Both the position numbers and the translations under genes were made by a program. Under the pieces are notes generated by a model. The model was not told where the DNA came from, did not search any database, and saw only the letters and a list, made by a program, of their open reading frames with translations. From the NCBI GenBank assembly GCA_041738235.1, contig JBGSQF010000004.1, positions 6,215 through 70,214 on the forward strand: a stretch of 64,000 nt of DNA. Direction: 5' to 3'. This document shows positions 3,424 through 64,000 of this stretch, piece after piece. Source of the DNA: Minisyncoccia bacterium (GTDB lineage: Bacteria; Patescibacteriota; Minisyncoccia; Moranbacterales; GCA-2747515). The first letter of the stretch is position 1, and every line of letters begins with the position of its first letter.

Positions 3424-4344
3424 TCATTCACCCAATCCCGCTATTGCCTGTTTTAACGCTTCGGCTGATCGCTGAAGAAGCTCCAATTCAGAGTCAGAGA
3501 ACACTACGCACATATGTCCCGCAATACCCTCTTTTCCCACCACCGCAGGGACACTCAAACAGACATCCGATATACCAAACTCACCCTCCATCAGATGCGA
3601 TACTGGCAAGATCACACGCTTATCATTGATGATGGCACTGCACAAATGTGCCACTCCGGCACCGATAGCATAATACGTCGCTTGCTTTCCCTTGATGATA
3701 GCGTATGCAGCATTCTTTGCCTGATCAAAGATCTCATCTTTTTCTGGCTGACTGAGTATCCGACACTCATTAATGCTCATCGATCCTGTCATAGCCGTCG
3801 ACCAGAAAGGCAATTCGCTGTCTCCATGTTCCCCCACAATATAAGCGTGAATACTTCGAGGGTTGATACGCAACTTTTCTCCAAGAAGATGGCGAAAACG
3901 AGCACTATCCAACATTGTTCCCGTTCCCAAGATCTGACGCTTTTTTTCAGGAAACATTTTGATCGCCAAATAGGTCAACGCATCCACCGGATTGGTTACC
4001 ATAATAAGGATCGCATCGGGATTACGAGAAAATATCTCCGGAACGATCGCTTGAACGATCTTGGAATTATTTTTAATAAGATCGAGTCGCGTTTGTCCCT
4101 CCTTCTGCGCCGATCCAGCACAAAATACTACCACGCGACTATCTCGAAAATCTTCATAGGTTCCTACCTTAACCTGGGTAGAACCAAAAAAAGGCACACT
4201 ATGCTGCAAGTCCATTACCTGAGCCTTTGCGAGGTCCTCATTTACATCAATGATCGCCACCTCCTGCACAATATCCTTGGCAACGATACTATAGGCACTT
4301 GTTGCCCCCACCATTCCAGCACCAACTACTGTGATCTTATCCAT
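3424..4344 (-). CDS. ldh: L-lactate dehydrogenase
   Basis: 306 aa. It has the Rossmann N-terminus ITVVGAGMVG and the substrate loop SAQKEGQTRLDL, where Gln at the specificity position indicates LDH rather than MDH. The catalytic IVGEHGDS motif is present. Confidence 0.8.
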   Translation of the reverse strand: MDKITVVGAGMVGATSAYSIVAKDIVQEVAIIDVNEDLAKAQVMDLQHSVPFFGSTQVKVGTYEDFRDSRVVVFCAGSAQKEGQTRLDLIKNNSKIVQAIVPEIFSRNPDAILIMVTNPVDALTYLAIKMFPEKKRQILGTGTMLDSARFRHLLGEKLRINPRSIHAYIVGEHGDSELPFWSTAMTGSMSINECRILSQPEKDEIFDQAKNAAYAIIKGKQATYYAIGAGVAHLCSAIINDKRVILPVSHLMEGEFGISDVCLSVPAVVGKEGIAGHMCVVFSDSELELLQRSAEALKQAIAGLGE

Positions 4345-4403
4345 AGAGAAAGCATTTACACTTTAAGGATTACCCATTACAGTAGAATTATACCATATTC
4401 TTT

Positions 4404-5351
4404 ATGAATACTCCCAACACCTTCACCGTCACTTCTCAAGAGGCAGGTGCGCGCCTCGATGTTTTTTTGCACATACACTTTCCGCAACACTCACGGTCCA
4501 CACTCGCAAAACACGTCATGCAAGGCAATGTCCTTTTAAACAAGAAACAAAAAAAGCCTAGCTCTATCCTAAAAGATGGTGACCAAGTAGAAGTGTTTTT
4601 ACCAGAAGAACAGGTTGATGCTCTCCTACCAAACAACACTTTACAAATTCCCGCTCTCTACGAAGATAACAATATTTTGGTTATCAATAAACCGGCGGGG
4701 ATCCAGACACACCCCTCCGCCACAGAAGAACAAAAGACCGTGGTCAATTGGCTCATCGCCAAATATCCAAAGATTGCTTCTATTGGTGAAGATCCGACCC
4801 GACCCGGCATCGTTCACCGCCTTGATAAGGATACTTCAGGCGTGCTTGTTATTGCCAAAACCCAAGAAAGTTTTAAAAAGCTCAAAGAACTTTTTGGCTC
4901 ACGTGAGATCGAAAAAGCATACGTCGCGCTTGTTCATGGCATACCATCACCATCAATAGGAACTATCGATAAACCCATCGCTCGATCCGCATCCTTTCGA
5001 AAACAAGTCATTCCCGAAGGTCGAACAAAATTCAAAGGAACGCCACGAGAGGCTATCACAAAATATGAAGTGACAAAGACCTTTCCAGCTTCTGCTCCTC
5101 GCTATTCATTACTTTCTGTTAAACCACAAACAGGGAGAATGCATCAGATCCGCATTCATCTCTCCTCCATAGAACACCCCATTGTAGGAGATGCTCTTTA
5201 TAGACGAAAAGAATTTCAAACACCTTCTATTGTCAAAAGACACCTCCTGCATGCACACCAGATCTCGTTCAATCTTTTCGGCAAGGCACACACTTTTAAC
5301 GCGCCTTTACCAGACGATTTTGAAAGATTCCTAAAAACAGTAGAATGTTGA
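4404..5351 (+). CDS. rluD: RluA-family 23S rRNA pseudouridine synthase (RluD-like) with N-terminal S4 domain
   Basis: 315 aa. The catalytic motif HRLDKDTSGVLVIAKT is present, and the S4-like N-terminus reads ARLDVFL. Confidence 0.8.
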   Translation: MNTPNTFTVTSQEAGARLDVFLHIHFPQHSRSTLAKHVMQGNVLLNKKQKKPSSILKDGDQVEVFLPEEQVDALLPNNTLQIPALYEDNNILVINKPAGIQTHPSATEEQKTVVNWLIAKYPKIASIGEDPTRPGIVHRLDKDTSGVLVIAKTQESFKKLKELFGSREIEKAYVALVHGIPSPSIGTIDKPIARSASFRKQVIPEGRTKFKGTPREAITKYEVTKTFPASAPRYSLLSVKPQTGRMHQIRIHLSSIEHPIVGDALYRRKEFQTPSIVKRHLLHAHQISFNLFGKAHTFNAPLPDDFERFLKTVEC

Positions 5352-5423
5352 CAATAACGATACTTTCGTTTACCATAGGAGAACTGGGTGATTCCACCCT
5401 TTTTTGTAATGAAAGACATATAT

Positions 5424-5933
5424 ATGCATAAAACAGTTATTGAGTTCAACCAGACCCAAAGAAACAAGGCCATTCCAGACATTCGTACAGGAGATACTGT
5501 GCGCATATTCCGAAAGATCGTAGAAGAAGGCAAGGAACGCATTCAGATCTTTGAAGGTCTTATTATAGCCAAAAAAGGTGGACAAAGCTCTTCTCCCACG
5601 ATCACCGTACGAAAAACCTCTTTTGGCGTAGGCGTAGAGCTGGTTCTCCCCGTCTACTCCCCCACGATCGAAAAGATCGAATTGGTAAAACGCTCCAAAA
5701 CACGACGATCAAAACTTTACTTCGTGCGCGACAAGGCTGATCGTGAACTTAAACGAAAACTCCGAGATATCCCCCTCTCTGAAGAAGAAAAACTTCCCAA
5801 AGAGCCAAAAAAAGAAATTGCTCCTGCCACTGCTGAGATGTCAGAAAAGTCAGAACCGGTAGAAACTGAAGAAGCTCCGGAAAAAACAGAAGTAGTTGCC
5901 GGCAAGGAAGAAGATAAGAAAGAAGTAAAATAG
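5424..5933 (+). CDS. rplS: 50S ribosomal protein L19 with acidic/Lys-rich C-terminal extension
   Basis: The L19 core is GDTVRIFRKIVEEGKERIQIFEGLIIAKKGG...TVRKTSFGVGVELVLPVYSPTIEKIELVKRSKTRRSKLYFVR. The ORF track starts at 5388, but ATG 5424 (MHKTVIEF) fits the L19 N-terminus better. Confidence 0.85.
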   Translation: MHKTVIEFNQTQRNKAIPDIRTGDTVRIFRKIVEEGKERIQIFEGLIIAKKGGQSSSPTITVRKTSFGVGVELVLPVYSPTIEKIELVKRSKTRRSKLYFVRDKADRELKRKLRDIPLSEEEKLPKEPKKEIAPATAEMSEKSEPVETEEAPEKTEVVAGKEEDKKEVK

Positions 5934-5960
5934 CCTTTTATATAAAGCTTTATCATAACA

Positions 5961-5985
5961 TTCCCGCTCATGCGGGAATTTATGT
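5961..5985 (+). terminator. rho-independent terminator after rplS
   Basis: The hairpin TTCCCGC-tcat-GCGGGAA is followed by TTTATGTAT. Confidence 0.6.
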
Positions 5986-6031
5986 ATCGGCTCTGTACAA
6001 AAAGAAAAATATTTCCTATACTAAAAAACAT

Positions 6032-6116
6032 GCCCAGGTGGCGGAATCCGGTATACGCGCTAGCTTGAGGTGCTAGTTCTCGCAAGGGATTGGAGGTTCA
6101 AATCCTCTCCTGGGCA
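6032..6116 (+). tRNA. tRNA-Leu (anticodon GAG), long variable arm, no encoded CCA
   Basis: The acceptor stem is GCCCAGG/CCTGGGC. The anticodon stem-loop is CTAGC-TTGAGGT-GCTAG. The T-loop is GTTCAAATC and the discriminator is A. Confidence 0.85.
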
Positions 6117-6119
6117 CAA
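6099..6119. repeat. 21-bp direct repeat copy 1 (3' end of tRNA-Leu: CAAATCCTCTCCTGGGCACAA)
   Basis: It is identical to 6271..6291. Confidence 0.9.
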
Positions 6120-6270
6120 GAACGGAGTGAGTGTGACAAGGAAGTAAGTCGACTGCTCGACTTACTCGAGGATTTGAAAGTCGGAGCGATGCGCAAGTTT
6201 GAGCAAAGCGAGAAGCGCGCGCCGCGAGACGGGGTCGAGAAATATTTTCGTCAGAAAATATATTCGTGAC

Positions 6271-6291
6271 CAAATCCTCTCCTGGGCACAA
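6271..6291. repeat. 21-bp direct repeat copy 2 (duplicated tRNA-Leu 3' end) closing a 151-bp insert
   Basis: It is a perfect copy of 6099..6119. The intervening 6120..6270 contains two hairpins (GTAAGTCGA-ctgc-TCGACTTAC and GAAATATTTTC-gtca-GAAAATATATTC). Confidence 0.9.
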
Positions 6292-6315
6292 AAATGATCA
6301 AGAACAAAGACGAAT

Positions 6316-6389
6316 GCGCGATTAGCTCAGTTGGTTAGAGCATCTCGTTTACACCGAGAGGGTCGTAGGTTCGAGTCCTACATCGCGCA
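6316..6389 (+). tRNA. tRNA-Val (anticodon TAC)
   Basis: GCGCGATTAGCTCAGTTGGTTAGAGC...TCTCG-TTTACAC-CGAGA...GGTTCGAGTCC...ATCGCGCA. Confidence 0.85.
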
Positions 6390-6401
6390 CAAAAAATATC
6401 C

Positions 6402-6473
6402 GCCGAGGTAGCTCAGTGGTAGAGCAGAGGACTGAAAATCCTCGTGTCGGCAGTCCGATTCTGCCCCTCGGCA
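6402..6473 (+). tRNA. tRNA-Phe (anticodon GAA)
   Basis: The acceptor stem is GCCGAGG/CCTCGGC. The anticodon loop is GAGGA-CTGAAAA-TCCTC. The T-arm is GGCAG-TCCGATT-CTGCC. Confidence 0.85.
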
Positions 6474-6509
6474 CAAAATAGAAAGAGAGTAAGTGTATAC
6501 CTGAGCCAT

Positions 6510-6581
6510 GGGGCTGTAGCTCAGTGGTAGAGCGCGCGGCTCATAACCGCTTGGTCATAGGTTCGATCCCTATCAGCACCA
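6510..6581 (+). tRNA. tRNA-Met (anticodon CAT; elongator vs Ile2/lysidine type not resolved)
   Basis: The sequence runs GGGGCTGTAGCTCAGTGGTAGAGC...loop CTCATAA...ATAGG-TTCGATC-CCTAT-CAGCACC-A. There is one G.A mismatch in the acceptor stem. Confidence 0.7.
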
Positions 6582-6594
6582 CACAAAAGTAATA

Positions 6595-6666
6595 GCGGGT
6601 ATCGTATAGTGGCTATTATACGTCCTTGCCAAGGACGAGAGACGGGTTCGATTCCCGTTACCCGCT
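6595..6666 (+). tRNA. tRNA-Gly (anticodon GCC)
   Basis: The anticodon stem-loop is CGTCC-TTGCCAA-GGACG, identical in pattern to E. coli tRNA-Gly(GCC). The T-arm is ACGGG-TTCGATT-CCCGT, and the discriminator is U as expected for Gly. Confidence 0.85.
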
Positions 6667-6803
6667 CAGATTATAAAGAACGGCTTGAATAAGCTGTTTT
6701 TTGTATTACAACAAGTAGCGATATATCGATAATATATATCACAATATTGACTTTATGATATATTATGATAAGATGTATTTATCAATAGTAGTTAAATAAA
6801 TAT

Positions 6804-7892
6804 ATGGGAAAAATTAAATTTAATCATCCAAAACATTTACCAATAAAACTTGATTATGGTAAATTTGCTTTGGAATTAGCAGCGGCTCAATATGAATTAG
6901 GTGTTCTTCAGGGTTCGCATAAGAATTTGCGTAATCCACTTTTGCTCATTGCTCCTCTTACAGCGAAGGAAGCTTCGGTTAGCTCAAAAATTGAAGGAAC
7001 ACAAAGTTCTCCAAGAGATGTTTTTGTGTATGAGGCTGGAGGGAAATCAGCATATGAGGATACTCCTGAAGTTGCAAATTATAGAAGAGCTATGTACTTT
7101 GCCTTGGACGAACTTAAAAAAGGAAGAAAAATTAGTTCACATTTAATAAAATCACTCCAGGAAATTTTATTGAAAAATAGTCGTCATGATGGCAAGCTTG
7201 GAGCCTACAGGGAAAAAACGGTATATATTGCAGAAAAAAGAAGTGACCCAATTGAGAAAGCGTTGTATGTACCACCAGAACACTTTCTTGTTCCTGAATA
7301 TGTGGATAACCTGATAGAATTTTTAAAAAGCGAAGAGGATCTGCTGATTAAAGCGGGCATAATTCATTATCAATTTGAGGCTATTCATCCATTTGAAGAC
7401 GGCAATGGAAGAATAGGCAGACTGTTGATACCATTGTTTCTTTTCCAAGAGAAGAAGGTGTCATTGCCAATAATTTACGTAAGTGGTTATCTGGAAAGTA
7501 ATCGATCGGAATATAGAAATGCGTTACATAAGGTAGATGAAACTGGAAATTACGAGCCATGGCTTAAAGTGTTTTTTAAGGCAATAGCTATGCAGGCAAA
7601 GGAAACAAGTGATACTGTGGGCAAAATTAATGATTTATATGATTCAACCAGAGATCTAGTTAAGAAAGTTAAGTCTCCATATATAATCCCTACAATTGAT
7701 TTTATCTTTGAACAGCCAATATTTTCAACAACCCAGCTTATGAATAAGTTAAATACTTCTGCATGGCTGACAGGCTCAAGGCAAGTGGAAATATTAAAAA
7801 AGAACAAGTTAATTGAAGAGTTGCCTGCCGATTTTAGTGATGACAAAAGAGAAAAGCTTTACATCTTTCATAAGCTACTTTCCTTGTTGTAA
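6804..7892 (+). CDS. Fic/DOC family protein (class II, with N-terminal inhibitory SxxxEG helix)
   Basis: 362 aa. It has the canonical Fic active-site motif HPFEDGNGRIGR and the N-terminal inhibitory motif SSKIEG (S-x-x-x-E-G). The gene and its flanks are clearly more AT-rich than neighbouring DNA. Confidence 0.85.
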   Translation: MGKIKFNHPKHLPIKLDYGKFALELAAAQYELGVLQGSHKNLRNPLLLIAPLTAKEASVSSKIEGTQSSPRDVFVYEAGGKSAYEDTPEVANYRRAMYFALDELKKGRKISSHLIKSLQEILLKNSRHDGKLGAYREKTVYIAEKRSDPIEKALYVPPEHFLVPEYVDNLIEFLKSEEDLLIKAGIIHYQFEAIHPFEDGNGRIGRLLIPLFLFQEKKVSLPIIYVSGYLESNRSEYRNALHKVDETGNYEPWLKVFFKAIAMQAKETSDTVGKINDLYDSTRDLVKKVKSPYIIPTIDFIFEQPIFSTTQLMNKLNTSAWLTGSRQVEILKKNKLIEELPADFSDDKREKLYIFHKLLSLL

Positions 7893-7952
7893 GAAAGATG
7901 CATTTGCGAACCCAGTCCGAACTGCCTGCACTTCCCCGCTCCGCAAATAAAA

Positions 7953-7986
7953 GAAAATTCCCACAAATGGGAATTTTCTTTTATTA
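7953..7986 (+). terminator. rho-independent terminator after the fic gene
   Basis: The hairpin GAAAATTCCCA-caaa-TGGGAATTTTC is followed by TTTTATT. Confidence 0.7.
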
Positions 7987-8046
7987 TAGGAAAACTTCAA
8001 CAAAGGGGGGGTTTTATTTCTCTCAATCTTCGCTATACTAAATACC

Positions 8047-9045
8047 ATGCAAAGAATACTTAACCTTTTCCTCATTGGACTTGTTGCCACCGCAGCGATC
8101 TTCGGAAGTGTTTTTGCTTTCCTGCACAGGGAAGAACTCGTTTCTCCCTGCCTGCCCCCACTTCACTATTCGATCGGCACTGTTGATCCACAATTTCAAA
8201 TATCACGCGAAAAATTCACCTCGATCGTCTTTCAGGCTGAACAAATGTGGGAGACCGCTCTTGAAAAAGATGTCTTTCAGTACGACCCGAGCGCACCTTT
8301 TACAGTAAACCTTCTCTATGATGAACGTCAATCCAAAACAAACAAAAGCATTCAACTTGAAAAAGAGATCGATTCAAAAAAAGAAACGTATGATCAGCTG
8401 ACGGAAAAACTTGATGCGGACACAAAAACCTACGAGGCGCTCATGACTGAATATAATATACTCTCGAAAAAGTACGAGGCAGACGCCACTGCATACAATA
8501 CAACTGTTGCCTCCTGGAACAAAAAAGGCGGTGCGCCCCCAAAAGAATACAAACAACTCCAAGAAGACCTCAAGACCATCGAGGAAGAACAATCCAAACT
8601 CAACACACTCATAAGCCAGATCAATGCGCTTGCAAAATCCTCCGAATATCTCGTATCTACCATAAATAACACCGCTGACAACATCAACTCGACAGTAGAT
8701 ATACACAACAACCTTTTTGAGCAAGGCGAGGAATTCAATAAGGGAATATTCAATAGAGACCGAATTGACATCTACCAGTTTATAAGTCCAGAAGATCTCC
8801 TTCTTACCCTCACTCACGAGATGGGACACTCCCTTTATATTACCGAACACACGCAAGATCCCAAATCGATCATGTATTATCTTATGCAAGAGCAACCCAC
8901 GGATCCCGTTGCACTCACCCAACAAGACATCGATGCCGCCGTTCATACGTGCCGTTTCGATATCCGTACCACAAAAGACTACCTCGATGCTCTGTATAAC
9001 TATTTTGCCCACCTCAATCTTCAATCACTCTACTGGCAGAAGTAA
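8047..9045 (+). CDS. membrane-anchored coiled-coil protein with C-terminal HExxH zinc-metalloprotease-like motif
   Basis: 332 aa. It has an N-terminal TM (ILNLFLIGLVATAAIFGSVFAFL), then a long K/E/Q-rich predicted coiled coil, then LTHEMGHSLYITEH (HExxH plus a downstream E/H). The family is not recognised. Confidence 0.55.
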   Translation: MQRILNLFLIGLVATAAIFGSVFAFLHREELVSPCLPPLHYSIGTVDPQFQISREKFTSIVFQAEQMWETALEKDVFQYDPSAPFTVNLLYDERQSKTNKSIQLEKEIDSKKETYDQLTEKLDADTKTYEALMTEYNILSKKYEADATAYNTTVASWNKKGGAPPKEYKQLQEDLKTIEEEQSKLNTLISQINALAKSSEYLVSTINNTADNINSTVDIHNNLFEQGEEFNKGIFNRDRIDIYQFISPEDLLLTLTHEMGHSLYITEHTQDPKSIMYYLMQEQPTDPVALTQQDIDAAVHTCRFDIRTTKDYLDALYNYFAHLNLQSLYWQK

Positions 9046-9093
9046 TCTGTTCTTCAACAAGATTGACAAACATCCAGTTTCGTGCTTCACTAG

Positions 9094-9125
9094 AGAGTTC
9101 TTACTTATAAGAACTCTTTTGTTTT
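9094..9125 (+). terminator. rho-independent terminator
   Basis: There is a perfect 10-bp inverted repeat AGAGTTCTTA-ctta-TAAGAACTCT, followed by TTTTGTTTTG. Confidence 0.7.
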
Positions 9126-9254
9126 GTAACCGCTCCTTGTCATCTCCTCTTGGATCAAAATGACTTGCTCGAAAAAATCTTTCGGGCCAGTCAAATGGCC
9201 CGAGATATTGATTTTTTCTCGGGGTTCCCCCAACCAAGTTAGGAGAAACTTCCC

Positions 9255-10049
9255 ATGAGCAGACTGCTCGCTATGCTCCTCGTCCTGTCTTCATTTGTCT
9301 CCGGCGCCCATGCCGGATTCGACTGGGGCTCGACGTCGATGCCAAGCTTCCGCGTCCCGACTACCAGTCCCATCCTTTACGGAGCTACAGCGATCCATGA
9401 GGGATCGCCCACCGCAACACTAAAGAGGTATCACCTCAACGGGACAGTCCTCGTGACCACAACCCTTGCGGTTGGCACCTACTCGGGAGGCTCAACCCCT
9501 CCCAGTGGAACCCTCGTAGATGGGGGATCTCGCCTCGGAGGGGTCTATGGCTCCCCCGTCGTTGGGTCCGCTTGGATAACCTCTGCCGTTGGCATTCCCA
9601 ACGGAGGGGTCTACTTTGCCGGCTGGGACTGCACCTCCGCATGGGTGTGCCAGTACGGCATCTATCGCATCCAATGCAGAGATATCGCCTGCACGGGGTA
9701 CACGAGCGTCAAACGAGTCAAGGGGTTCGCCAACCCCGTATCGACACGCACGGCGTGGATTGACCTCCTGGCGCCCTCGTCCAACGGGAATGTCCTTGCC
9801 TTCCGACGGGTGGAACAAGACACGGACGGTGCCAACACCGTGGCCGAGATATGGACGCTAGCAACCAATACCTTGGTCGCCACAAAAACAGCGACAAACC
9901 TCGCCGCAGGAATTCCAATTATCGGTGACCTTCAGATCCTCCCAGGAATGGGGGCGCAGATCACCTTGGTGAAGCCCGCGACCACGGCGCTCCCCCTAGG
10001 ATCGGGAGCACTGTACAAGCCAGGGGTGGGGTGGAAACTAATCCGGTAG
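9255..10049 (+). CDS. secreted hypothetical protein encoded in a GC-rich (~60%+) island
   Basis: 264 aa. It has a signal peptide MSRLLAMLLVLSSFVSGAHA and a G/T/S/V-rich mature part with several Cys. Its codon composition contrasts strongly with the rest of the window. The many short overlapping ORFs on both strands (9436..9918) are by-products of the high GC. Confidence 0.55.
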   Translation: MSRLLAMLLVLSSFVSGAHAGFDWGSTSMPSFRVPTTSPILYGATAIHEGSPTATLKRYHLNGTVLVTTTLAVGTYSGGSTPPSGTLVDGGSRLGGVYGSPVVGSAWITSAVGIPNGGVYFAGWDCTSAWVCQYGIYRIQCRDIACTGYTSVKRVKGFANPVSTRTAWIDLLAPSSNGNVLAFRRVEQDTDGANTVAEIWTLATNTLVATKTATNLAAGIPIIGDLQILPGMGAQITLVKPATTALPLGSGALYKPGVGWKLIR

Positions 10050-10213
10050 CCCCCTTGCCCGCCACAGGAACCTTGCAAAGAGAACTTGCAAGGCTCCTGT
10101 GGACACTTAGAACCTGCCCAAAATATTTCAACTGACAAATGCAAATATTTTTACTTTGAGATATTCTGAACCAGTTTTAAACTATTTGATTTTTCTCCCG
10201 AAGATGTTACCAT

Positions 10214-10822
10214 TTGGATATTCAATCTGCTTTATTTTTCTTTGTGAAACCATTTAACCTTTTTATTCTTTCCGGTCCTTCCGGAGCTGGAGAAGATTCT
10301 ATCATTGAAGGACTTAAAAAACACCTCCCCATAGAACGCGTCGTCACTTCCACCACACGAGAACCTCGCACCGGTGAATCGCAAGGAAATCCCTACTATT
10401 TTCTTTCCCGCGAAAACTTTCAACAAAAGATAGATGCGGGAGAAATGGTGGAGTATGCTCAAGAATATAACAACAACTACTACGGGGTGACGAAAACGGA
10501 AATAGAACGTGTTCTGGCCTCTGGAAGGGTCGGCATCTGGAAGATCGAATGGAAAGGCGTGATTACTGCCAAAAAACTGTATCCAAACATCTGTGCCATA
10601 TTTCTTATGACAGAAAGCCTTGAGGTACTCGAACAGCGCATACGACGACGCGATTCGAATATTTCCGAAGAATACATACAAGAACGCATGAACTACACGA
10701 AAGAATGGCTCAAACACGAAGATATTTATGACTACACCGTTATCAACAAAGAAAACCATCTTGAAGAGGCGATCAACGAAGTTAAGGACATCATCCAAAA
10801 AACCTTCGACCGCGCCACTTAA
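10214..10822 (+). CDS. gmk: guanylate kinase homolog with degenerate P-loop (GPSGAGEDS instead of GPSGxGK[ST])
   Basis: 202 aa. GMPK signatures are present: TTREPRTGESQGNPYYFLSRENF, EYAQEYNNNYYGVTK. The Walker A reads LSGPSGAGEDS (codons gga gaa gat tct at 10289..10300), so the catalytic Lys and Ser/Thr are replaced. Confidence 0.7.
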   Translation: MDIQSALFFFVKPFNLFILSGPSGAGEDSIIEGLKKHLPIERVVTSTTREPRTGESQGNPYYFLSRENFQQKIDAGEMVEYAQEYNNNYYGVTKTEIERVLASGRVGIWKIEWKGVITAKKLYPNICAIFLMTESLEVLEQRIRRRDSNISEEYIQERMNYTKEWLKHEDIYDYTVINKENHLEEAINEVKDIIQKTFDRAT

Positions 10823-11762
10823 ACGTGTTCAGAATTGGGCCCATACGCACAATCTTTGGGTACAAAACGATACAATCCTTGTGGGTATATCCGGAGGACC
10901 TGACAGTGTTTGTCTTCTGCATATCCTTTCCCGTATCGCGAAACGATCAGATCTAACTTTATACGCAACACACGTCAACTATCGTCTGCGCGGAGATGAG
11001 TCGGATGGCGATGAACGATTTGTTCGCGAACTTTGCACAAAACTAGCAATTCCGCTTTTTGTGTATGCTCCAAGGATCCCGAAAAAAAGATCAGAAGATG
11101 TACTACGGGTCTTGCGCTATAAACGATTTGAGATACTTCGTAGGCGACTCGGGTGTTCCGTGGTTGCGGTGGGACATAACAAGAACGACCAAGCAGAGAC
11201 ACTCCTGCTCCATCTTTTTCGAGGATGTGGCGTCAACGGAATGAAAGGTATGAGCCCAAAAAGAAACAGCATTATTCGACCACTCCTTACTCTCACCAGA
11301 AAGGATGTCTTATCCTATCTCAAAGAAAACTCTCTTACTTATAGAAAAGACTCAACAAACAAAACCCTTCTCTACACCAGAAATATCGTCCGACACAAAG
11401 TAATTCCGTTGATCCAAAAAAGTATCCAGCCAAATATTATCAATCTGCTGGCACAAAGCGCTCTACTTTTTTCCGATGAAGCAGAAATTTTAGAATCCCT
11501 AGATCCCCTCCCTTACCAGATCGAAAACGGTATCTATACATTCAGTCAGAAAGGATTTATTCGTCTTTCTCCTTCTCTTCAAAATCGGTTTTTGAGAATG
11601 CTACTCTCCAAATTACAAGATTCCAGCGAAAACATCTCATTTAGGAACATTTACGAAATAAGAAAAGCCCTTAGAAGTAAGAAGAGCAAAGGTCAGCATG
11701 TAACATTCCTCGGCTTGATATACGAAAGAAAGAATGATACAGTGTCTATACGAAAAATCTGA
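10728..11762 (+). CDS. tilS: tRNA(Ile)-lysidine synthetase
   Basis: 344 aa. It has the PP-loop ILVGISGGPDS and the TilS motif HVNYRLRGDESDGDERFVRE. ATG 10728 gives a 95-bp overlap with gmk. No in-frame alternative start lies downstream before the PP-loop, so the overlap or a non-canonical start must be real. Confidence 0.8.
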   Translation: MTTPLSTKKTILKRRSTKLRTSSKKPSTAPLKRVQNWAHTHNLWVQNDTILVGISGGPDSVCLLHILSRIAKRSDLTLYATHVNYRLRGDESDGDERFVRELCTKLAIPLFVYAPRIPKKRSEDVLRVLRYKRFEILRRRLGCSVVAVGHNKNDQAETLLLHLFRGCGVNGMKGMSPKRNSIIRPLLTLTRKDVLSYLKENSLTYRKDSTNKTLLYTRNIVRHKVIPLIQKSIQPNIINLLAQSALLFSDEAEILESLDPLPYQIENGIYTFSQKGFIRLSPSLQNRFLRMLLSKLQDSSENISFRNIYEIRKALRSKKSKGQHVTFLGLIYERKNDTVSIRKI

Positions 11763-11823
11763 AATATAAGAATTTTATCAGCAAGACCCCCCTCTAAATA
11801 AATTACCTCTCTTAAAAACCACT

Positions 11824-13671
11824 ATGGAAAAATTACTTAAGAACCTCTTTTCAATTCTGTCTGTTTTTCTTCTTATTGCAGCAATTCTCATACTCCTACA
11901 ACCAAAGGCGAAGAACCCAGAGAACATTTCACTCAACACACTCGTCAATAATATTAACGACGAGAAAGTTCAAAAAATAACCGTTGATGGAGAAAATCTC
12001 TCCGTGGAGCTCAAAGACAAGACTGAACAAAAGGCCGTAAAGGAAACAGAAAGTTCTCTCACAGAAACACTGGCAAATCTCGGAGCAGATCCAAACAAGC
12101 TACAATCTGTTGAGATCGAAATAAAAGGAATCTCAAGTTTTGCCTTTTGTGCAGGAACCGTTCTCCCATTTCTGCTTCCTGTGATCCTGATCGCTCTTTT
12201 TATCTGGTTTATGTTTCGTCAAGCACAACGAGGAAACTCTCAAGCACTTTCCTTTGGCCTGAGTCGCGCACGCATCATTGACCCCAAGGACAAGCGCAAG
12301 CGAATCACTTTTAAAGATGTTGCTGGAGAAACAGAGGCCAAAGAAGAGCTCATGGAAGTAGTTGAATTCTTAAAAGATCCAAAAAAGTTCCTTATTATGG
12401 GAGCAAAAATCCCAAAGGGAGTCCTTCTCATGGGCCCTCCAGGAACAGGAAAAACACTTCTCGCAAAGGCCGTTGCAGGAGAGGCGGGTGTTCCTTTCTT
12501 TAACATCAGCGGATCAGAATTCGTTGAAATGTTTGTGGGAGTAGGCGCAAGTCGCGTGAGGGACCTTTTTAAGCAGGCAAAGAAACAAGCCCCCGCAATC
12601 GTATTTATTGATGAGATCGATGCCGTGGGTCGTCATCGAGGAGCAGGATTGGGAGGTGGTCATGATGAACGTGAACAAACCCTCAATCAGATACTAGTAG
12701 AAATGGATGGATTCGAAACGGAGACGAACGTTATCGTCTTAGCCTCTACTAACCGTCCAGATGTTTTGGATCCAGCGCTTCTTCGACCAGGACGATTTGA
12801 TCGTCGTGTAACACTTGACCTACCTGATATTGCAGAAAGAGGTCAGATACTAGCTATTCACGCACAAAACAAACCTATCTCCAAAAAAGCAGATATGAAT
12901 GTGATCGCGCAACGAACGCCAGGGTTTTCAGGAGCTGACCTTGCCAATCTTCTGAACGAAGCCTCTATCCTGGCGGCACGAAGAGAAAAAAAGGTGGTTC
13001 GCATGGAGGAGCTCACCGAAGCTATTGAAAAAGTTATTCTTGGGCCCGCAAGAAAAAGTCGAATTATTAATGTCGAAGAAAAAAAGATCGTAGCCTACCA
13101 TGAGGCAGGACATGCGCTCGTTGGAGCATCCCTCCCTAACGCAGATCCGGTACAAAAAGTATCCATTATATCCAGAGGTCATGCAGGCGGATATACCCTT
13201 TCTGTGCCCACTGAAGATCGTCATCTACGGTCCCGCGCATACTATGTTGATGAGTTGGCGGTACTTCTTGGTGGCTACACAAGTGAAAAACTTACATTCG
13301 GTGATATAACGACTGGTGCATCAAATGACCTCGAAAAGGCCACCCATATTGCAAGAAGCATGGTGACCCGTTATGGAATGAGCGATCTTGGACCACGTAC
13401 ATTTGGCAAAAAAGAAGAGCTTGTATTCTTGGGGAGAGAGATTTCCGAAGAACGCGACTACTCCAATGAAACAGCCCAAGCTATTGACAAAGAAGTTTCC
13501 GATCTCATACATGGCGCATTTGAAACCGCCCAAAAGGTCCTCACTGAAAAGAAAGATGTCCTTGCAAAGATCGCGCAGACACTTCTTGAGAAAGAAACTC
13601 TTGAGAAAGACGCTTTTGATGCTATCGTACAGGGAATCGCTGAAAAATCCCCCTCGACCCAAACAGTCTGA
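11824..13671 (+). CDS. ftsH: ATP-dependent zinc metalloprotease FtsH
   Basis: 615 aa. It has an N-terminal TM, the Walker [19 protein letters not shown], Walker [10 protein letters not shown], the [24 protein letters not shown], and the Zn site HEAGHAL. Confidence 0.95.
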
Positions 13672-16934: not shown

Positions 16935-17849
16935 ATGAACATAGAACCTCTTTTCAAAGAATTCCTTGATTTTCTTGAACTTGAGAAAGGAAGAAGTCAA
17001 CTCACCCTTCGCAACTACTCTCATTCACTGCACGACTTTTTTCTTTCTACAAAAATACGAAGGGTATCAGACATCACCGTTTCTTCTATTACCCAATATC
17101 GAAAGGACCTCCACCGAAGGAAAAATCGCGATGGCGAACCCCTTGCCCTTTCTACACAAAGCTACGCCATTATCGCGATCCGAAGCTTCCTTAAATTTCT
17201 TGCATTCCGGGACATACCAGCCCTTTCTGTCGAGAAGCTCTCTGTCCCAAAGGTCCCCGAGCATGACGTAGAATTCCTCACCACCCCTGAAATGGAGCGC
17301 CTTCTCGATCAGCCCAACAAAAACACCCTGAAATCCCATAGAGACAAGGCTATCCTAGAACTCCTCTTCTCGGCGGGCCTCCGCGTTTCAGAGATCACCT
17401 CTCTCAACCGTGATCAGATCAATACAAAAACACAGGAATTGCGTGTTCGCGGAAAAGGCGGGAAAGTGCGAATCGTATTTGTTTCTGATACTGCCCGAAA
17501 AGCCATACACGAATACCTTGAAAAACGCACTGACATAGACGAAGCCTTATTTGTCCGACTCCCCTCAAAGGCAAATATCAAAAAGGACGGATCGCTCCGC
17601 CTTACCCCACGCTCCATCCAACGCCTGGTCAAAGACTACGCTGTTTCAGCCGGTATTGTAAAGGATGTCCATCCACACACACTTAGACACAGCTTTGCCA
17701 CCGATCTCCTTAAAAACGGCGCTGACATACGGAGTGTCCAAACACTTCTCGGCCATTCCTCTATAACCACCACACAGATCTATACTCACATAACTAACGA
17801 ACGCCTCCGGGAAGTGCATAAAAAGTTTCACCGAAAAAATCCTCAATAA
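16935..17849 (+). CDS. tyrosine recombinase XerC/XerD family
   Basis: 304 aa. It has the C-terminal catalytic box HTLRHSFATDLLKNGADIRSVQTLLGHSSITTTQIYTHI (R..H..R..Y) and AGLRVSE. An extended -10 element TGATATACT lies 9 bp upstream of the ATG. Confidence 0.85.
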   Translation: MNIEPLFKEFLDFLELEKGRSQLTLRNYSHSLHDFFLSTKIRRVSDITVSSITQYRKDLHRRKNRDGEPLALSTQSYAIIAIRSFLKFLAFRDIPALSVEKLSVPKVPEHDVEFLTTPEMERLLDQPNKNTLKSHRDKAILELLFSAGLRVSEITSLNRDQINTKTQELRVRGKGGKVRIVFVSDTARKAIHEYLEKRTDIDEALFVRLPSKANIKKDGSLRLTPRSIQRLVKDYAVSAGIVKDVHPHTLRHSFATDLLKNGADIRSVQTLLGHSSITTTQIYTHITNERLREVHKKFHRKNPQ

Positions 17850-39449: not shown

Positions 39450-39547
39450 ATTTATACACCCCACAAAAAAAGTACTCTCTAGCAAGATCATCATTAGTTG
39501 AAAAACAAAAAAATCTCCAGAAGCTTAGGAGGAAAAACTTTCTTTTA

Positions 39548-39563
39548 TGTTCCACGTGGAACA
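39548..39563. promoter_or_regulatory. parS: parS site 3
   Basis: TTTTATGTTCCACGTGGAACATAAAA is a 26-bp palindrome. Confidence 0.85.
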
Positions 39564-39716
39564 TAAAAGAAAGAGATTCTATAAAAAACACTCACAAACA
39601 GCTATTAAAAAAAGTAACCTTGCAAACTCACACCAAAAGATAATATGCGACAAAAAATCCTTTTGGTTATATAAAAATGGTAAAAAATAGCTAGATCTTG
39701 TAAAAAGGGACCCAAC

Positions 39717-39842: not shown

Positions 39843-39993
39843 TAAAAAACCTAAAAACCAGACTTTGATGATCCATTGCTCTTACTTAAGATTTTTACCC
39901 AATTACAACAAACACACATAACCCAATAATTAACACTTCGCAAATAGTACCATCCTAGAAATCTTATAAAGATACCTTAATAGAAAAGATACA

Positions 39994-40009
39994 TGTTCCA
40001 CGTGGAACA
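39994..40009. promoter_or_regulatory. parS: parS site 6
   Basis: It is embedded in the 28-bp perfect palindrome GATACATGTTCCACGTGGAACATGTATC. Confidence 0.85.
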
Positions 40010-40106
40010 TGTATCTGTATTATAGCGAAGGTACTAGCGACACACTACTTAAAAATCGATTCTCAATAAAGATTCACCCTAGATCAAAGATTGTTAACAG
40101 TCTATT

Positions 40107-42630: not shown

Positions 42631-42715
42631 GCCGCGGTGGCGGAATTGGTAGACGCAAGGGACTTAAAATCCCTCGAATTAAACACTCGTGCGAGTTCGA
42701 GTCTCGCCCGCGGCA
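42631..42715 (+). tRNA. tRNA-Leu (anticodon TAA), long variable arm
   Basis: GCCGCGGTGGCGGAATTGGTAGACGC; the anticodon loop is AGGGA-CTTAAAA-TCCCT. It has a long extra arm, T-arm GCGAG-TTCGAGT-CTCGC, and 3' end CCGCGGC-A. Confidence 0.85.
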
Positions 42716-42748
42716 CAAAAAAGCCCCGATTCTCATCGGGGCTTTTCT
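42716..42748. terminator. bidirectional rho-independent terminator
   Basis: AAAAAA-GCCCCGAT-tctc-ATCGGGGC-TTTTCTT lies between the tRNA-Leu and the convergent 3D-domain gene. Confidence 0.75.
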
Positions 42749-43260
42749 TACTCTAACACAACCTTTGCTAATAAATTCTTTCTTCCGAAAGCAAAGGCAT
42801 CCGATTTGGTTTGCATATAGATATCGAAGTGATTGCCCTTGATCGCACCTCCACGATCTTCACAGGTATATACGCCCATTCCCTCGATCTCGATCTTAGC
42901 CCCAAAAGGATATTGCGCGGGACAAGCAAGTGTTCTCTTTTCTGTAACCTTCACTCCCGACGCTGTGACACCATCCGATTTCCCACATTCATCGGCCGCT
43001 GCAGTATAAGCGGAAGCATTAATGATAAAGGAATCGGACTTAAGGTTATTCCACAATCCACTTTGCTTTACTTTCCATTGATCCATGATCCTCTGATAGC
43101 GAAAAGCGTATACAGCCTCTTCGGAATAAACGACAGGAAACCCTTCACTTGAGAGATTGACTATTTTTATTTGGATATTGGGGTCTTCGCTGATCTGCGC
43201 ACATCCTATATTAGGCAGTATAAGCGCAAATATGAGAGCAAAAGCACCAAGTTTCCACAT
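42748..43260 (-). CDS. secreted 3D-domain (MltA-like) cell-wall-binding/lytic protein
   Basis: 170 aa. It has a signal peptide MWKLGAFALIFALILPNIGCAQ. The 3D domain reads GVTASGVKV...ACPAQYPFGAKIEIEGMGVYTCEDRGGAIKGNHFDIYM. Confidence 0.7.
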   Translation of the reverse strand: MWKLGAFALIFALILPNIGCAQISEDPNIQIKIVNLSSEGFPVVYSEEAVYAFRYQRIMDQWKVKQSGLWNNLKSDSFIINASAYTAAADECGKSDGVTASGVKVTEKRTLACPAQYPFGAKIEIEGMGVYTCEDRGGAIKGNHFDIYMQTKSDAFAFGRKNLLAKVVLE

Positions 43261-43396
43261 AAGGTATCGCTAATAATTAGCTACCTTTGTTTTAAAAAAC
43301 TTTTATTTTAACCGTCAATTATAGCATTTTTAAACAATTTTGTCAATATCTAGGCCAGCCTATTTATCTCTACATTTGTAGACCCTTCTCTCCATC

Positions 43397-43426
43397 AATA
43401 AAACCCCTTCTAAAAGGGGTTTTATT
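43397..43426 (-). terminator. rho-independent terminator downstream of rpsA
   Basis: AATAAAACCCCTT-ctaa-AAGGGGTTTTATT is flanked by A/T tracts. Confidence 0.7.
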
Positions 43427-43464
43427 GATTATCCACAGTTTTTCCACACTACTCCACAACAACC

Positions 43465-46078: not shown

Positions 46079-46252
46079 AGATCACAACCTACCTCTTTAA
46101 GAGAAAGCCTCTCCAACCACGAGAGGCTTTCTTGTACAAAGAACAAAAATTTTTCAGTAGTAAAGACTCCTCACACAGACAAAATATTATCCACAAACAT
46201 TCTTGGATAAAAGTAGCGTGTTTTACTTTTTTAGTGTATCCTATAAGAAGAT

Positions 46253-61961: not shown

Positions 61962-63108
61962 AGACAAACAACCAAAAAACGACACTGAGCATATTTCCCC
62001 AAAAGACCGTATCCACCGATCCATGCAGAAATAATGCAAAAAGCACACAAAAGACCCCAATTGTAAAAATATTGGTGGTTTTTTTATTCTTGTAAAACGC
62101 AAAAACCACATTCCCCACCACTATAAGAAATCCGATCACACCCAACACTCCCGCATACAGCCAGAAAGCAAGAAGCGTATTGTGTGGATGCGGAACTGCC
62201 CATTCAAGATAGGGGGGATAGAATTTCTGGTATTCCAAGTATATATCTTGAAAATTCCCCGGACCAATACCAAAAAGGGTATTATCAGCTCCAATTTGGA
62301 CCGCGCTTCTCCAGATCATCATCCGAGAAGCAAGAGATGACCGTTCCAAGAAGAGCTCCTTTTGAAGAAAAAACAAGAAAAAACCACCCAACAACAACAC
62401 TGACCCAGCCATAAAAAATGCCTTATACTTTTTCAAAAACCCCCAATGTAAAGCCGCCTCACCCAAAAATATCCCCACCAGAGACGAAATGATTGACCCA
62501 GACGATCCGGTGGCCACCATTGCAAGACAAAGGATCACAATGACCGGAAGTACTATCCTACGGGTACCCTTTATCCCCTCTCGATACAAAAACCACGCCA
62601 TAATGAAAGCTGGAACAATATACATTGCTAGTTGATTGGGGGATTCATACCAGCCACGTAGGCGGTGGTCATAGGTTATCGAAAAAGATTCGGGAAGAAA
62701 AAAAGAAAGAAGCGCAACAAAGAACGCCGACCCCATATAGAAAAAAATTCCCTTACGCAAGGAAAATCCACAAAGATACGACAAAAAAACGAATAAAAAG
62801 GGGAGAACGACCCAACTCTTGATGATCCCCAGCTCACGAAACTGGATCCCATGAGAGAGGAAAGAAGCAAAAACCGTTCCCAGAACGATACAAAAGAATC
62901 CCCCCATTACCCATCTCTTCTCCTGTATTCTTTGCCACATTTTTTCTTTTTCTGTAGGAAAAAACAACAGCCCAAAAGAAAGTAGTATCGTCATGCCCTC
63001 AAGTATGTCCAATGCATTAAGCAAAGAAAAAACGCCTCCAAGATAAATAGGATAGACGGGAAGGAAAAAGAGGGTACTTAGAAAAAATATTTCAGCTATT
63101 TTTCTCAT
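61939..63108 (-). CDS. O-antigen ligase / Wzy_C-family polytopic membrane protein
   Basis: 389 aa with about 11 TM. The Wzy_C signature is RSSLASRMMIWRSAVQIGADNTLFGIGPGNFQ (the R..W......P.FG.G.G.F box). Confidence 0.7.
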   Translation of the reverse strand: MRKIAEIFFLSTLFFLPVYPIYLGGVFSLLNALDILEGMTILLSFGLLFFPTEKEKMWQRIQEKRWVMGGFFCIVLGTVFASFLSHGIQFRELGIIKSWVVLPFLFVFLSYLCGFSLRKGIFFYMGSAFFVALLSFFLPESFSITYDHRLRGWYESPNQLAMYIVPAFIMAWFLYREGIKGTRRIVLPVIVILCLAMVATGSSGSIISSLVGIFLGEAALHWGFLKKYKAFFMAGSVLLLGGFFLFFLQKELFLERSSLASRMMIWRSAVQIGADNTLFGIGPGNFQDIYLEYQKFYPPYLEWAVPHPHNTLLAFWLYAGVLGVIGFLIVVGNVVFAFYKNKKTTNIFTIGVFCVLFALFLHGSVDTVFWGNMLSVVFWLFVFSDHSYS

Positions 63109-64000
63109 CTTGTGTCTTGTTTATTGGAGTGACATCGCTCCACAGAATGGCCCCCACGACGCACAGAATGCCCGCCACGTGCACAGAATAGATCGGGGTA
63201 TCAAAGATAGCATGAACAGAAAAAGTTATCAAAGAAACGGCTCCTGCGAAAAATACCACGTCCTTTTTTGCAAGAAGCAAAGACCGTCTCATGGCCCATA
63301 CCATCCCAATGACCCATAAGGCAAGACCTGCAAACCCCATTTCTGTGGCAATATCCAAATACAGATCGTGCGCATAGATCGGGTCACGATACGTGGCGCT
63401 TGGCTGAACCGTTTCCGGGTATCCGCCAAGTCCAACTCCGAGAAAAGGATTCTCAGTCACAACATCCCAAGCCTGTCCCCACAAAAAAAGTCGCTCCTCT
63501 CCCGAAGCGTCCACGGAAAAAAGTGTTGATTCAAGTCGATCTCGAACAAAATTGTTCGTTCCCAGCGTCACACCAACCATACACACCAAGCAAGTAAGAG
63601 CAAAAAGACCCTCACGAAAACGCAATAAACGATCGCGAACAAATATTGCTCCGATCACCAAAAATCCAACAAAAAGGCCGATGTATGCCCCCCGAGAGAA
63701 CGACAAAAAAATCGCCAAGACCATAAAAAGAGCAGCGACCAAATATATTTTCTTTTTTTCCTTTAAAAAGAGAAAAAGTGCCCAGGGAAAACACACTTCC
63801 AGGAAGAAAGCGAACACATGCGGATCTGGAAACACTGCAATGGCACGAAATATGGTGATCCCTCCAACATTGACCAACCAACTCGAATATTCCAAGACCG
63901 TTTCAGAAAACACCCCTCCAAGGAAAAATGGGGCTATGTACTCCCTCCAAATAAAGAGCGTTGTCTCAAGACCAAATACAAATTGCCCCAGCCACTGAAA
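63092..64000 (-). CDS. second O-antigen ligase / Wzy_C-family membrane protein; 5' end runs off the right window edge
   Basis: The track gives 63092..63913 from a GTG, but the frame stays open to the window edge (QWLGQFVFGLETTLFIWREYIAPFFLGG upstream of VFSETV). Wzy_C motifs: SRGAYIGLF, ERLFLWGQAWDVVTENPFLGVGLGGYPE, AHDLYLDIATEMGFAGL. Confidence 0.7.
   Translation of the reverse strand, partial: FQWLGQFVFGLETTLFIWREYIAPFFLGGVFSETVLEYSSWLVNVGGITIFRAIAVFPDPHVFAFFLEVCFPWALFLFLKEKKKIYLVAALFMVLAIFLSFSRGAYIGLFVGFLVIGAIFVRDRLLRFREGLFALTCLVCMVGVTLGTNNFVRDRLESTLFSVDASGEERLFLWGQAWDVVTENPFLGVGLGGYPETVQPSATYRDPIYAHDLYLDIATEMGFAGLALWVIGMVWAMRRSLLLAKKDVVFFAGAVSLITFSVHAIFDTPIYSVHVAGILCVVGAILWSDVTPINKTQDEKNS

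Follow-up and report, generated by a model that had tools for sequence, protein, structure and literature searches.

The stretch analyzed here, 64,000 nt of contig JBGSQF010000004.1 from a Minisyncoccia bacterium (positions 6,215 to 70,214; referred to below in its entirety as the window and numbered from its first base), carries a short GC-rich islet that occupies the spacer between the gene for an M10-like metalloprotease and gmk. The islet contains one gene (9255..10049, + strand, 795 bp), which specifies a 264 aa protein with predicted export and belongs to an unannotated family. The gene immediately upstream (8047..9045) codes for a matrixin-like protein (Pfam Peptidase_M10), and hairpins are found on both sides of the islet gene. 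The homologues of the M10-like protein are named as members of the Parcubacteria group, Candidatus Paceibacterota, the Patescibacteria group and Candidatus Doudnabacteria, and the Ldh and RluD proteins of the window share 75% and 54% identity with their counterparts in CP065011.1 (Candidatus Moraniibacteriota, Parcubacteria group), where the two genes have the same divergent arrangement. A first-pass annotation of the window, made from the sequence without database searches, had proposed a Candidate Phyla Radiation (CPR)-type organism, and this is borne out by the names of the protease homologues and by the Ldh match to Candidatus Moraniibacteriota.

The islet gene is judged to be real and protein-coding because its product is conserved among homologues encoded in DNA of very different GC content (P0003, P0004 and P0125-P0130). 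A Shine-Dalgarno-like AGGAGA can be read directly from the sequence at 9241..9246 (+ strand), 8 nt 5' of the ATG at 9255, and its spacing favors this start over the one given by NCBI, which corresponds to M7 and a protein of 258 aa. The first-pass annotation had described a signal-peptide-like N-terminus, and this is present as stated: positions 9255..9314 (+ strand) specify MSRLLAMLLVLSSFVSGAHA, which is predicted to be a Sec signal peptide and has the cleavage motif A-x-A ahead of G21. By inspection, its layout is MSR-LLAMLLVLSSFV-SGAHA followed by G, with a positively charged n-region, a hydrophobic h-region and the A-x-A motif, and it is without a lipobox Cys. Inspection showed this n-h-c layout in 7/7 full-length family members, where it ends in AHA, ANA or ATA.

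Further features of the protein are evident from an alignment of nine family members (alignment A3). Positions 9630..9692 (+ strand) encode a block with four invariant cysteines (C126, C132, C141 and C146; pattern C-T-x-x-W-x-C-x8-C-x-D-x-x-C), and W24, W130, W200 and W260 are also invariant, as are several Gly and Pro positions. Comparison of alignment segments with each other (hhalign) detected no internal repeats in the family. AlphaFold2 gave confidence scores (pLDDT) of 36.1 from the single sequence and 36.7 from a three-sequence alignment, and both of these low-confidence models are beta-rich. The product would be exported via Sec, with the signal peptide cut after AHA, to leave a mature protein of about 244 aa that is probably beta-rich, judging from the low-confidence models, and that may be stabilized by two disulfides formed from the four invariant cysteines. 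A Sec-exported, probably disulfide-stabilized, beta-rich extracellular protein is the best-supported mechanistic description of the product, and an extracellular or cell-surface binding or adhesion protein, perhaps for contact with other cells, is offered as a guess of low confidence.

The base composition of the islet gene sets it apart from the remainder of the window. It has a GC content of 60.1%, compared with 43.7% for the window (z = 4.7 against sliding 795-bp windows; mean 43.7%, standard deviation 3.5%). The richest 795-bp stretch of the 64 kb lies at 9271-10065, and the runner-up reaches just 52.8% GC. The GC content steps up at the start codon and drops sharply directly past position 10102. 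For the three codon positions (GC1/2/3), the values are 0.555/0.562/0.687 for the islet gene and 0.508/0.361/0.434 for the 53 other long open reading frames (ORFs) of the window, giving z = 0.9/3.8/4.6 (GC3 of the reference ORFs, 0.434±0.055). The synonymous log-likelihood per codon under window usage is -1.295, lower than that of each of the other 53 ORFs (-1.096, standard deviation 0.048, minimum -1.193; z -4.1), and loci of 53–58% GC that carry other family members (L010 and L014, described below) fit its codon usage slightly better than the window does. Re-encoding the same protein with the synonymous preferences of the window gives 51.7% GC and a GC3 of 0.45, and the observed values are about 60.1–60.2% and 0.69, so about half of the 16-point GC excess is due to synonymous codon choice. 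About half, the remainder, stems from the Gly/Ala/Pro/Thr-rich nature of the protein, in which the ratio of Gly, Ala, Arg and Pro to Phe, Tyr, Met, Ile, Asn and Lys residues (GARP/FYMINK) is 1.76, compared to 0.73 for host proteins. On both strands, eight more ORFs with lengths of 50 aa and above overlap the gene, and the six frames of the region contain 34 stop codons, compared to 61±11 in other 795-bp windows (z about -2.5; not the window minimum). The excess of stop-free ORFs is an arithmetic outcome of the high GC. The first-pass annotation had reported a gene of about 60% GC or more, far above the window, with a burst of overlapping stop-free ORFs on both strands; both statements hold, the gene being the GC maximum of the window, and the GC3 and codon-usage analysis that it proposed as a check identifies a true outlier.

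An abrupt change in GC at the borders of a gene could also arise if a GC-rich segment had been mis-assembled, or if contaminating DNA had been fused to a CPR contig. Continuity was judged from per-run Logan assemblies, which were made independently of the metagenome-assembled genome (MAG). Contig L001 (SRR28170473) covers window positions 7946-11829 at 100% identity and L002 (SRR28170474) covers 6861-10186 with one mismatch (99.97%), and both span the two junctions. L003 (SRR35430752) covers 7935-9689 at 99.26% identity, spans the left junction, and is a strain variant from a different run series; of its 13 differences, 12 are upstream of the gene and the single remaining one, inside it, affects a third codon position. 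The exact 264 aa product, together with its neighbors, was recovered on per-run assemblies. Because three independent assemblies reproduce the junctions, the islet is not an assembly chimera, a possibility that the first-pass annotation had recommended checking. With the same junctions in assemblies made independently of the MAG, one of them from another run series and representing a 99.3%-identical strain with differences mostly in the flanks, mis-assembly or contamination retains next to no probability as an explanation of the GC-rich segment.

The gene order protease-gmk-tilS-ftsH-(311–317 aa) is kept in three groups of relatives (L005, L006/L007 and L008/L009), and the presence of the islet gene in related genomes, another point that had been marked for checking, could be examined at the syntenic site. 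It is absent there from all three sampled groups. In L005, the nearest sampled relative (protease 81% and FtsH 96% identical to those of the window), the protease-gmk spacer is 362 bp long and without a gene. The spacer of L006/L007 (protease 55%, FtsH 86%) is 70 bp and is likewise without a gene, and that of L008/L009 (protease 51%) holds an unrelated 136 aa, Pro-rich ORF with a hydrophobic segment. No remnant or pseudogene of the islet gene was detected in L005-L009 by tBLASTn. The borders of the insertion can be placed by BLASTn comparison with L005, in which window 8008-9044 matches L005 1569-2604 (79%) and window 10175-16268 matches L005 2901-8983 (81%), with nothing in between. The window-specific DNA (9045..10174, 1130 bp) contains the islet, cannot be aligned to L005, and stands opposite an unrelated L005 spacer of 296 bp; the two spacers show no significant local similarity. 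A likeness noted by eye between the 3' hairpin region and part of the L005 spacer was also not significant when its local alignment was compared with shuffles. On the right, similarity to L005 resumes within a segment (10156..10215, + strand) that includes a gmk promoter-like site (TTGAGA-16-TAAACT) and a conserved gmk leader, and which is taken as the native right border; window 10184-10215 matches L005 2909-2940 at 91% over 32 nt.

Together, these data make it likely, in our judgment, that the islet is a horizontally acquired single-gene insertion in a conserved Parcubacteria-type (Moranbacteria-like) CPR backbone. Acquisition from a higher-GC source is the best reading because the gene is a codon-usage outlier, is not chimeric, and is absent from the syntenic site of the relatives. 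A gain in the window lineage after its split from that of L005 would be the most economical course of events, and the gene would not yet have had time to drift toward the composition of its host. From a GC3 of 0.69, the donor would have had a genomic GC of about 55–60%, the calibration being a GC3 of 0.73 for the 58% GC locus L010 and 0.61 for the 53% GC locus L014.

Homologues of the islet protein are few. When 1.84 billion cluster representatives were searched exhaustively with phmmer, only three proteins were retrieved, these being the islet protein itself, P0003 (44% identity) and P0004 (37%), and a profile search added six more members to give a family of nine clusters. None of the nine matches a Pfam or NCBIfam entry, and there was no profile match in the PDB. 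Three family members gave no match to PHROGs or PADLOC, searches of genome contigs, metagenome contigs and viral contigs (IMG/VR) yielded no family homologues, tBLASTn against plasmids and phages gave no family match, and no mention of the accession numbers was found in the literature. The islet protein groups with P0003 (43% identity) in a subgroup of two, and the other seven members share 51–90% identity with each other and 31–37% with this pair. The distribution is patchy, with two members in Parcubacteria-type genomes and the others on metagenome contigs; those contigs that could be read have 53–60% GC, and one is Desulfobacterales-like. P0130 is encoded on contigs of 57–58% GC, among them this last one (L010), with genes for SHMT, aconitase, DHFR and complex I as neighbors; the aconitase reaches 77% identity to those of Desulfobacterales MAGs. 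P0128 and P0127 are encoded beside a cytochrome-b gene on contigs of 53–60% GC. From the sequences retrieved, the family appears tiny, patchy, and common to two Parcubacteria-type genomes and Desulfobacterales-type bacteria, and it is GARP-rich throughout. In L014 (1897-4071; also in L015), the P0128 gene is found 460 bp downstream of a gene for a 322 aa Y1-transposase (PF01797) and has 64.8% GC compared to 53% in its flanks, which hints that the family also moves in its GC-richer bacterial hosts.

The closest member to the islet protein, P0003 (QQS61048.1, hypothetical protein IPN70_04150), is 43–44% identical over its full length and is encoded by a 1.19-Mb Candidatus Moraniibacteriota MAG (CP065011.1; L004). 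It is similar in length (263 aa), has a signal peptide and the four cysteines, shares the subgroup motifs FDW.STS.P.FRV and ANPVSTR.AWIDLL, and is also specified by a single gene followed by a hairpin. It differs in that its gene (42% GC, GC3 0.288) has codons that fit its low-GC host (host GC3 0.227, local GC 35%), and its neighbors are PDDEXK, MarR and RND efflux genes. The P0003 gene looks resident in CP065011.1. In that genome (L004 10001-18827) and in the window (3424-10049), the family gene is separated by 4–6 kb from the conserved divergent Ldh-RluD pair and located on its RluD side; the orientation, however, is opposite, and the intervening genes are different. The shared proximity to Ldh-RluD could be due to chance (about 0.1, a rough estimate), or the neighborhood could be variable in both genomes.

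Such a relationship raises the question of whether the gene is ancestral to the Parcubacteria lineage and was lost from the sampled relatives, its high GC being the intrinsic composition of a Gly/Ala/Pro-rich protein. The closest homologue does come from a related Candidatus Moraniibacteriota genome, where Ldh and RluD have the arrangement seen in the window and the family gene lies at a similar distance from them, the family is GARP-rich throughout, and GC2 is high for compositional reasons. Amino acid composition covers only about half of the GC excess, however, as native codons would give a GC3 of 0.45 rather than 0.69, and the Moranbacteria copy, with its GC3 of 0.29, has the resident look that the islet gene lacks. 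Ancestry would also demand that each of the three sampled groups of relatives had lost the gene without leaving a remnant, and the proximity to Ldh-RluD is not clearly above chance. We therefore regard an ancestral gene as unlikely.

The first-pass annotation had suggested recent acquisition from a high-GC donor, and speculated that an actinobacterial host of the epibiont was the source. The foreign, higher-GC origin stands, but no donor was found. It had called for a search against high-GC taxa, and no close GC-rich homologue turned up among the 1.84 billion representatives or in an indexed set of 5.8 billion. It had also named best homologues in related low-GC genomes, with similar local GC, as evidence that would count against its proposal; this holds only by half, as the closest homologue is indeed in a related low-GC genome but shows no GC3 anomaly there. 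As to the actinobacterial host, direct transfer would fit the high GC of the gene, and episymbiotic CPR bacteria are known to exchange genes with their hosts. However, neither set of proteins contained an actinobacterial close homologue, the closest homologue (43–44%) resides in a low-GC CPR genome with native codons (GC3 0.29), and the only non-CPR member that can be placed is Desulfobacterales-like. A GC3 of 0.69 would also be below expectation for a recent arrival from a genome of 65–72% GC. The actinobacterial proposal is thus very unlikely to be correct.

The donor could well be another, GC-richer CPR bacterium. This would be at least as plausible as a host donor because the closest homologue comes from a CPR bacterium and because transfers among Patescibacteria are reported to predominate. 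Gios et al. (2025, mSystems, PMC12455944) describe horizontal transfer as frequent in Patescibacteria and mostly between Patescibacteria. Compared to acquired genes and genomic islands of Patescibacteria, as in that study, the islet is alike in being a foreign gene in a streamlined genome, with patchy distribution and its closest relative in Patescibacteria, and differs in consisting of one gene (about 0.85–1.1 kb) without an integrase, prophage or tRNA gene at its borders, and in its cargo, which is an unannotated secreted protein and not a gene for metabolism or information processing. Since the family is common only to Parcubacteria-type CPR and Desulfobacterales-type bacteria, it could also be a secreted interaction factor that is exchanged between episymbiont and host lineage, the islet being a recent host-derived or host-directed acquisition. 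We consider this unlikely, and were it true, sulfate-reducing Desulfobacterota would be indicated as partners of this CPR lineage.

Three hairpins are found near the islet gene, and their folding energies were compared with those of shuffled sequences to give z-scores. The first, which was not mentioned in the first-pass annotation, is terminator-like and follows the stop of the protease gene at 9045 (9089..9122, + strand; 12-bp AT-rich stem and then TTGTTTTGT; -15.5 kcal/mol, z -3.5). The second is a GC hairpin (9171..9218; stem 9180-9205, G-C in 6 of its 10 pairs) that lies between GAAAAAATC and GATTTTTTC, with a fold of -26.9 kcal/mol (z -4.3) and a match to the terminator consensus on both strands. 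Its core, CGGGCCA-gtcaaa-TGGCCCG, had been reported at about 9190 and is present at 9183-9202, with arms that extend to 14 nt (9176-9189 and 9196-9209). The third begins 12 nt past the stop codon of the islet gene (10062..10102, + strand; -27.2 kcal/mol, z -5.8), and its arms (10062-10078 and 10086-10102) are 17 nt each, 16/17 complementary, with one A/C mismatch in the 17-bp stem, a 7-nt loop and no T-run. A 17-bp-stem palindrome had been recorded at about 10057-10100, and its existence stands, at the slightly shifted position given here. Among all 50-nt windows of the 64 kb (+ strand), the downstream hairpin ranks first and the upstream GC hairpin fourth in folding energy. An Rfam search over 8900-10300 gave one sub-threshold match, attributed to chance.

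The upstream GC hairpin lies in low-GC DNA, 3' of the protease gene and after the hairpin at 9089-9122. It is interpreted as a native-style intrinsic terminator because other gene ends of the window show the same style of A-tract, long stem and T-tract (7941-7990, 42706-42755, 43381-43430 and 46101-46150). The element at 9171-9218 resembles bacterial intrinsic (Rho-independent) terminators, including bidirectional ones, in having an A-tract, a G+C-rich stem and a T-tract, and in doing so on both strands. It and the hairpin at 9089-9122 would be resident terminators of the protease gene, outside the islet. The downstream hairpin differs in that it lacks a T-run, does not appear in the list from the terminator-consensus scan, and meets the classical definition only in part. 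Tail-less, 'I-shaped' terminators exist, and the downstream hairpin resembles these. It lies inside the GC-rich segment, and is probably the terminator of the islet gene itself, having arrived along with the gene and acting as its tail-less terminator. The first-pass annotation had viewed the palindromes as bracketing the islet as a unit. This view was not upheld, as the two hairpins have no sequence in common and the upstream one follows the style of the genome's own terminators.

A pair of hairpins around a single gene might also mark a mobile cassette, in which they would be recombination sites, either of an integron cassette with attC or of an IS200/IS605-type insertion sequence with a passenger gene. 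No promoter was detected for the ORF, and a long imperfect palindrome comes after it, as would suit a cassette; genes for Y1 transposases are found both in the vicinity of a family member (L014) and in a relative (L008). Mobile elements of the IS200/IS605 type carry similar left and right hairpins, which are recognized by one Y1 transposase, but those flanking the islet gene share no sequence. On inspection, RYYYAAC and GTTRRRY core sites were not seen flanking the 3' palindrome, neither palindrome has a further copy in the 64-kb window, and the homologous family genes elsewhere are each followed by a hairpin that is unrelated in sequence. No integron integrase is present nearby, and the sole tyrosine recombinase gene in the annotated part of the window (16935-17849) probably specifies a housekeeping Xer-type enzyme because L006 has a counterpart in the same position. 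An integron gene cassette was rejected for lack of attC core sites at the palindrome (by inspection) and of a second palindrome copy, and an IS200/IS605-type element was rejected because of the dissimilar hairpins and because no Y1 transposase was found among the ORFs of 598-29292 when scanned against Pfam. A mobile cassette of either kind is highly improbable. Another candidate that was rejected is a target-site duplication, in the form of a direct repeat of 13–15 nt flanking the islet (TATTGATTTTTTCTC at 9206-9220 and TATTTGATTTTTCTC at 10183-10197). It is not significant, as the alignment score was equalled by 14% of dinucleotide shuffles and by 31% of AT-rich control pairs.

Several observations weigh against a horizontally acquired insertion, or temper it. 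No collection searched, including the 1.84 billion representatives, yielded a donor or a GC-rich close homologue, and since the closest homologue is encoded by a related CPR genome, the family may have been in the clade for longer. Part of the GC signal is intrinsic to the protein, because family members exceed the GC of their surroundings in other hosts too (42% vs 35% in L004; 65% vs 53% in L014). The borders of the islet are free of mobility genes, tRNA genes and significant direct repeats, and the tRNA cluster closest to it stops at 6667, which is 2.4 kb away from 9045, where the window-specific DNA begins on the left. Expression of the gene is putative, as a scan of the + strand between 9046 and 9254 detected no sigma-70-like promoter between the upstream terminators and the ATG, and the function of the protein is a guess, both structural models having a pLDDT of 36–37.

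Taken as a horizontally acquired single-gene islet, the locus is an ordinary example of a kind of event that is common in Patescibacteria, and it leaves current understanding unchanged, since frequent horizontal transfer into CPR genomes has already been documented. It does provide a clear case, with sharp bounds, in which a streamlined CPR genome recently gained one gene; relatives supply the empty site and independent assemblies back the junctions. Some residual interest lies in the rarity of the protein family and its lack of annotation, and the cargo of the islet is a predicted secreted, Cys-stabilized protein of a sort that offers plausible candidates for cell-cell interaction in episymbionts.

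Differences in gene content near the islet suggest that this neighborhood is variable. The 136 aa ORF in the corresponding spacer of L008 (11081-11491) and L009 (2492-2902) has 53% GC compared to 47% around it, with a GC hairpin and T-run before it and a long hairpin after it, and the protease-gmk spacer seems to take small foreign genes repeatedly. On the other side of the protease gene, between it and a tRNA cluster (6032-6667), the window carries a gene (6804-7892, + strand) for a 362 aa Fic/DOC protein with a full-length match to the PADLOC anti-phage model SoFic (E 2e-96), and this gene is a low-GC outlier (35.4% GC, GC3 0.28). In L006, helix-turn-helix and Gp49 toxin-antitoxin-like genes occupy the same position, and in L008 it is taken by TrmB, so the tRNA cluster-protease spacer looks like a second variable slot. 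The two spacers, if they are indeed variable slots as they appear, could help to compare gene flux among Parcubacteria. Downstream of the islet, the mechanically called ORFs for gmk (TTG start at 10214; 10214-10822) and tilS (ATG start at 10728; 10728-11762) overlap by 95 nt; on the Logan contigs, both genes are called from later starts (192 aa and 333 aa), which reduces the overlap to 62 nt.

Two further features lie at a distance from the islet. Two strong hairpins about 450 bp apart (39531-39580 and 39986-40035) have the palindromic core ATGTTCCACGTGGAACAT in common; they are found in the most AT-rich part of the window (32–36% GC), just upstream of the genes for tRNA-Ala and tRNA-Arg, and could be operator or repeat elements. 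The fewest six-frame stop codons of any 795-bp stretch in the window (28) occur at 63151-63945, where the GC content is ordinary (about 44–46%) and long ORFs overlap on both strands (63092..63913, - strand; 63552..63998, + strand).

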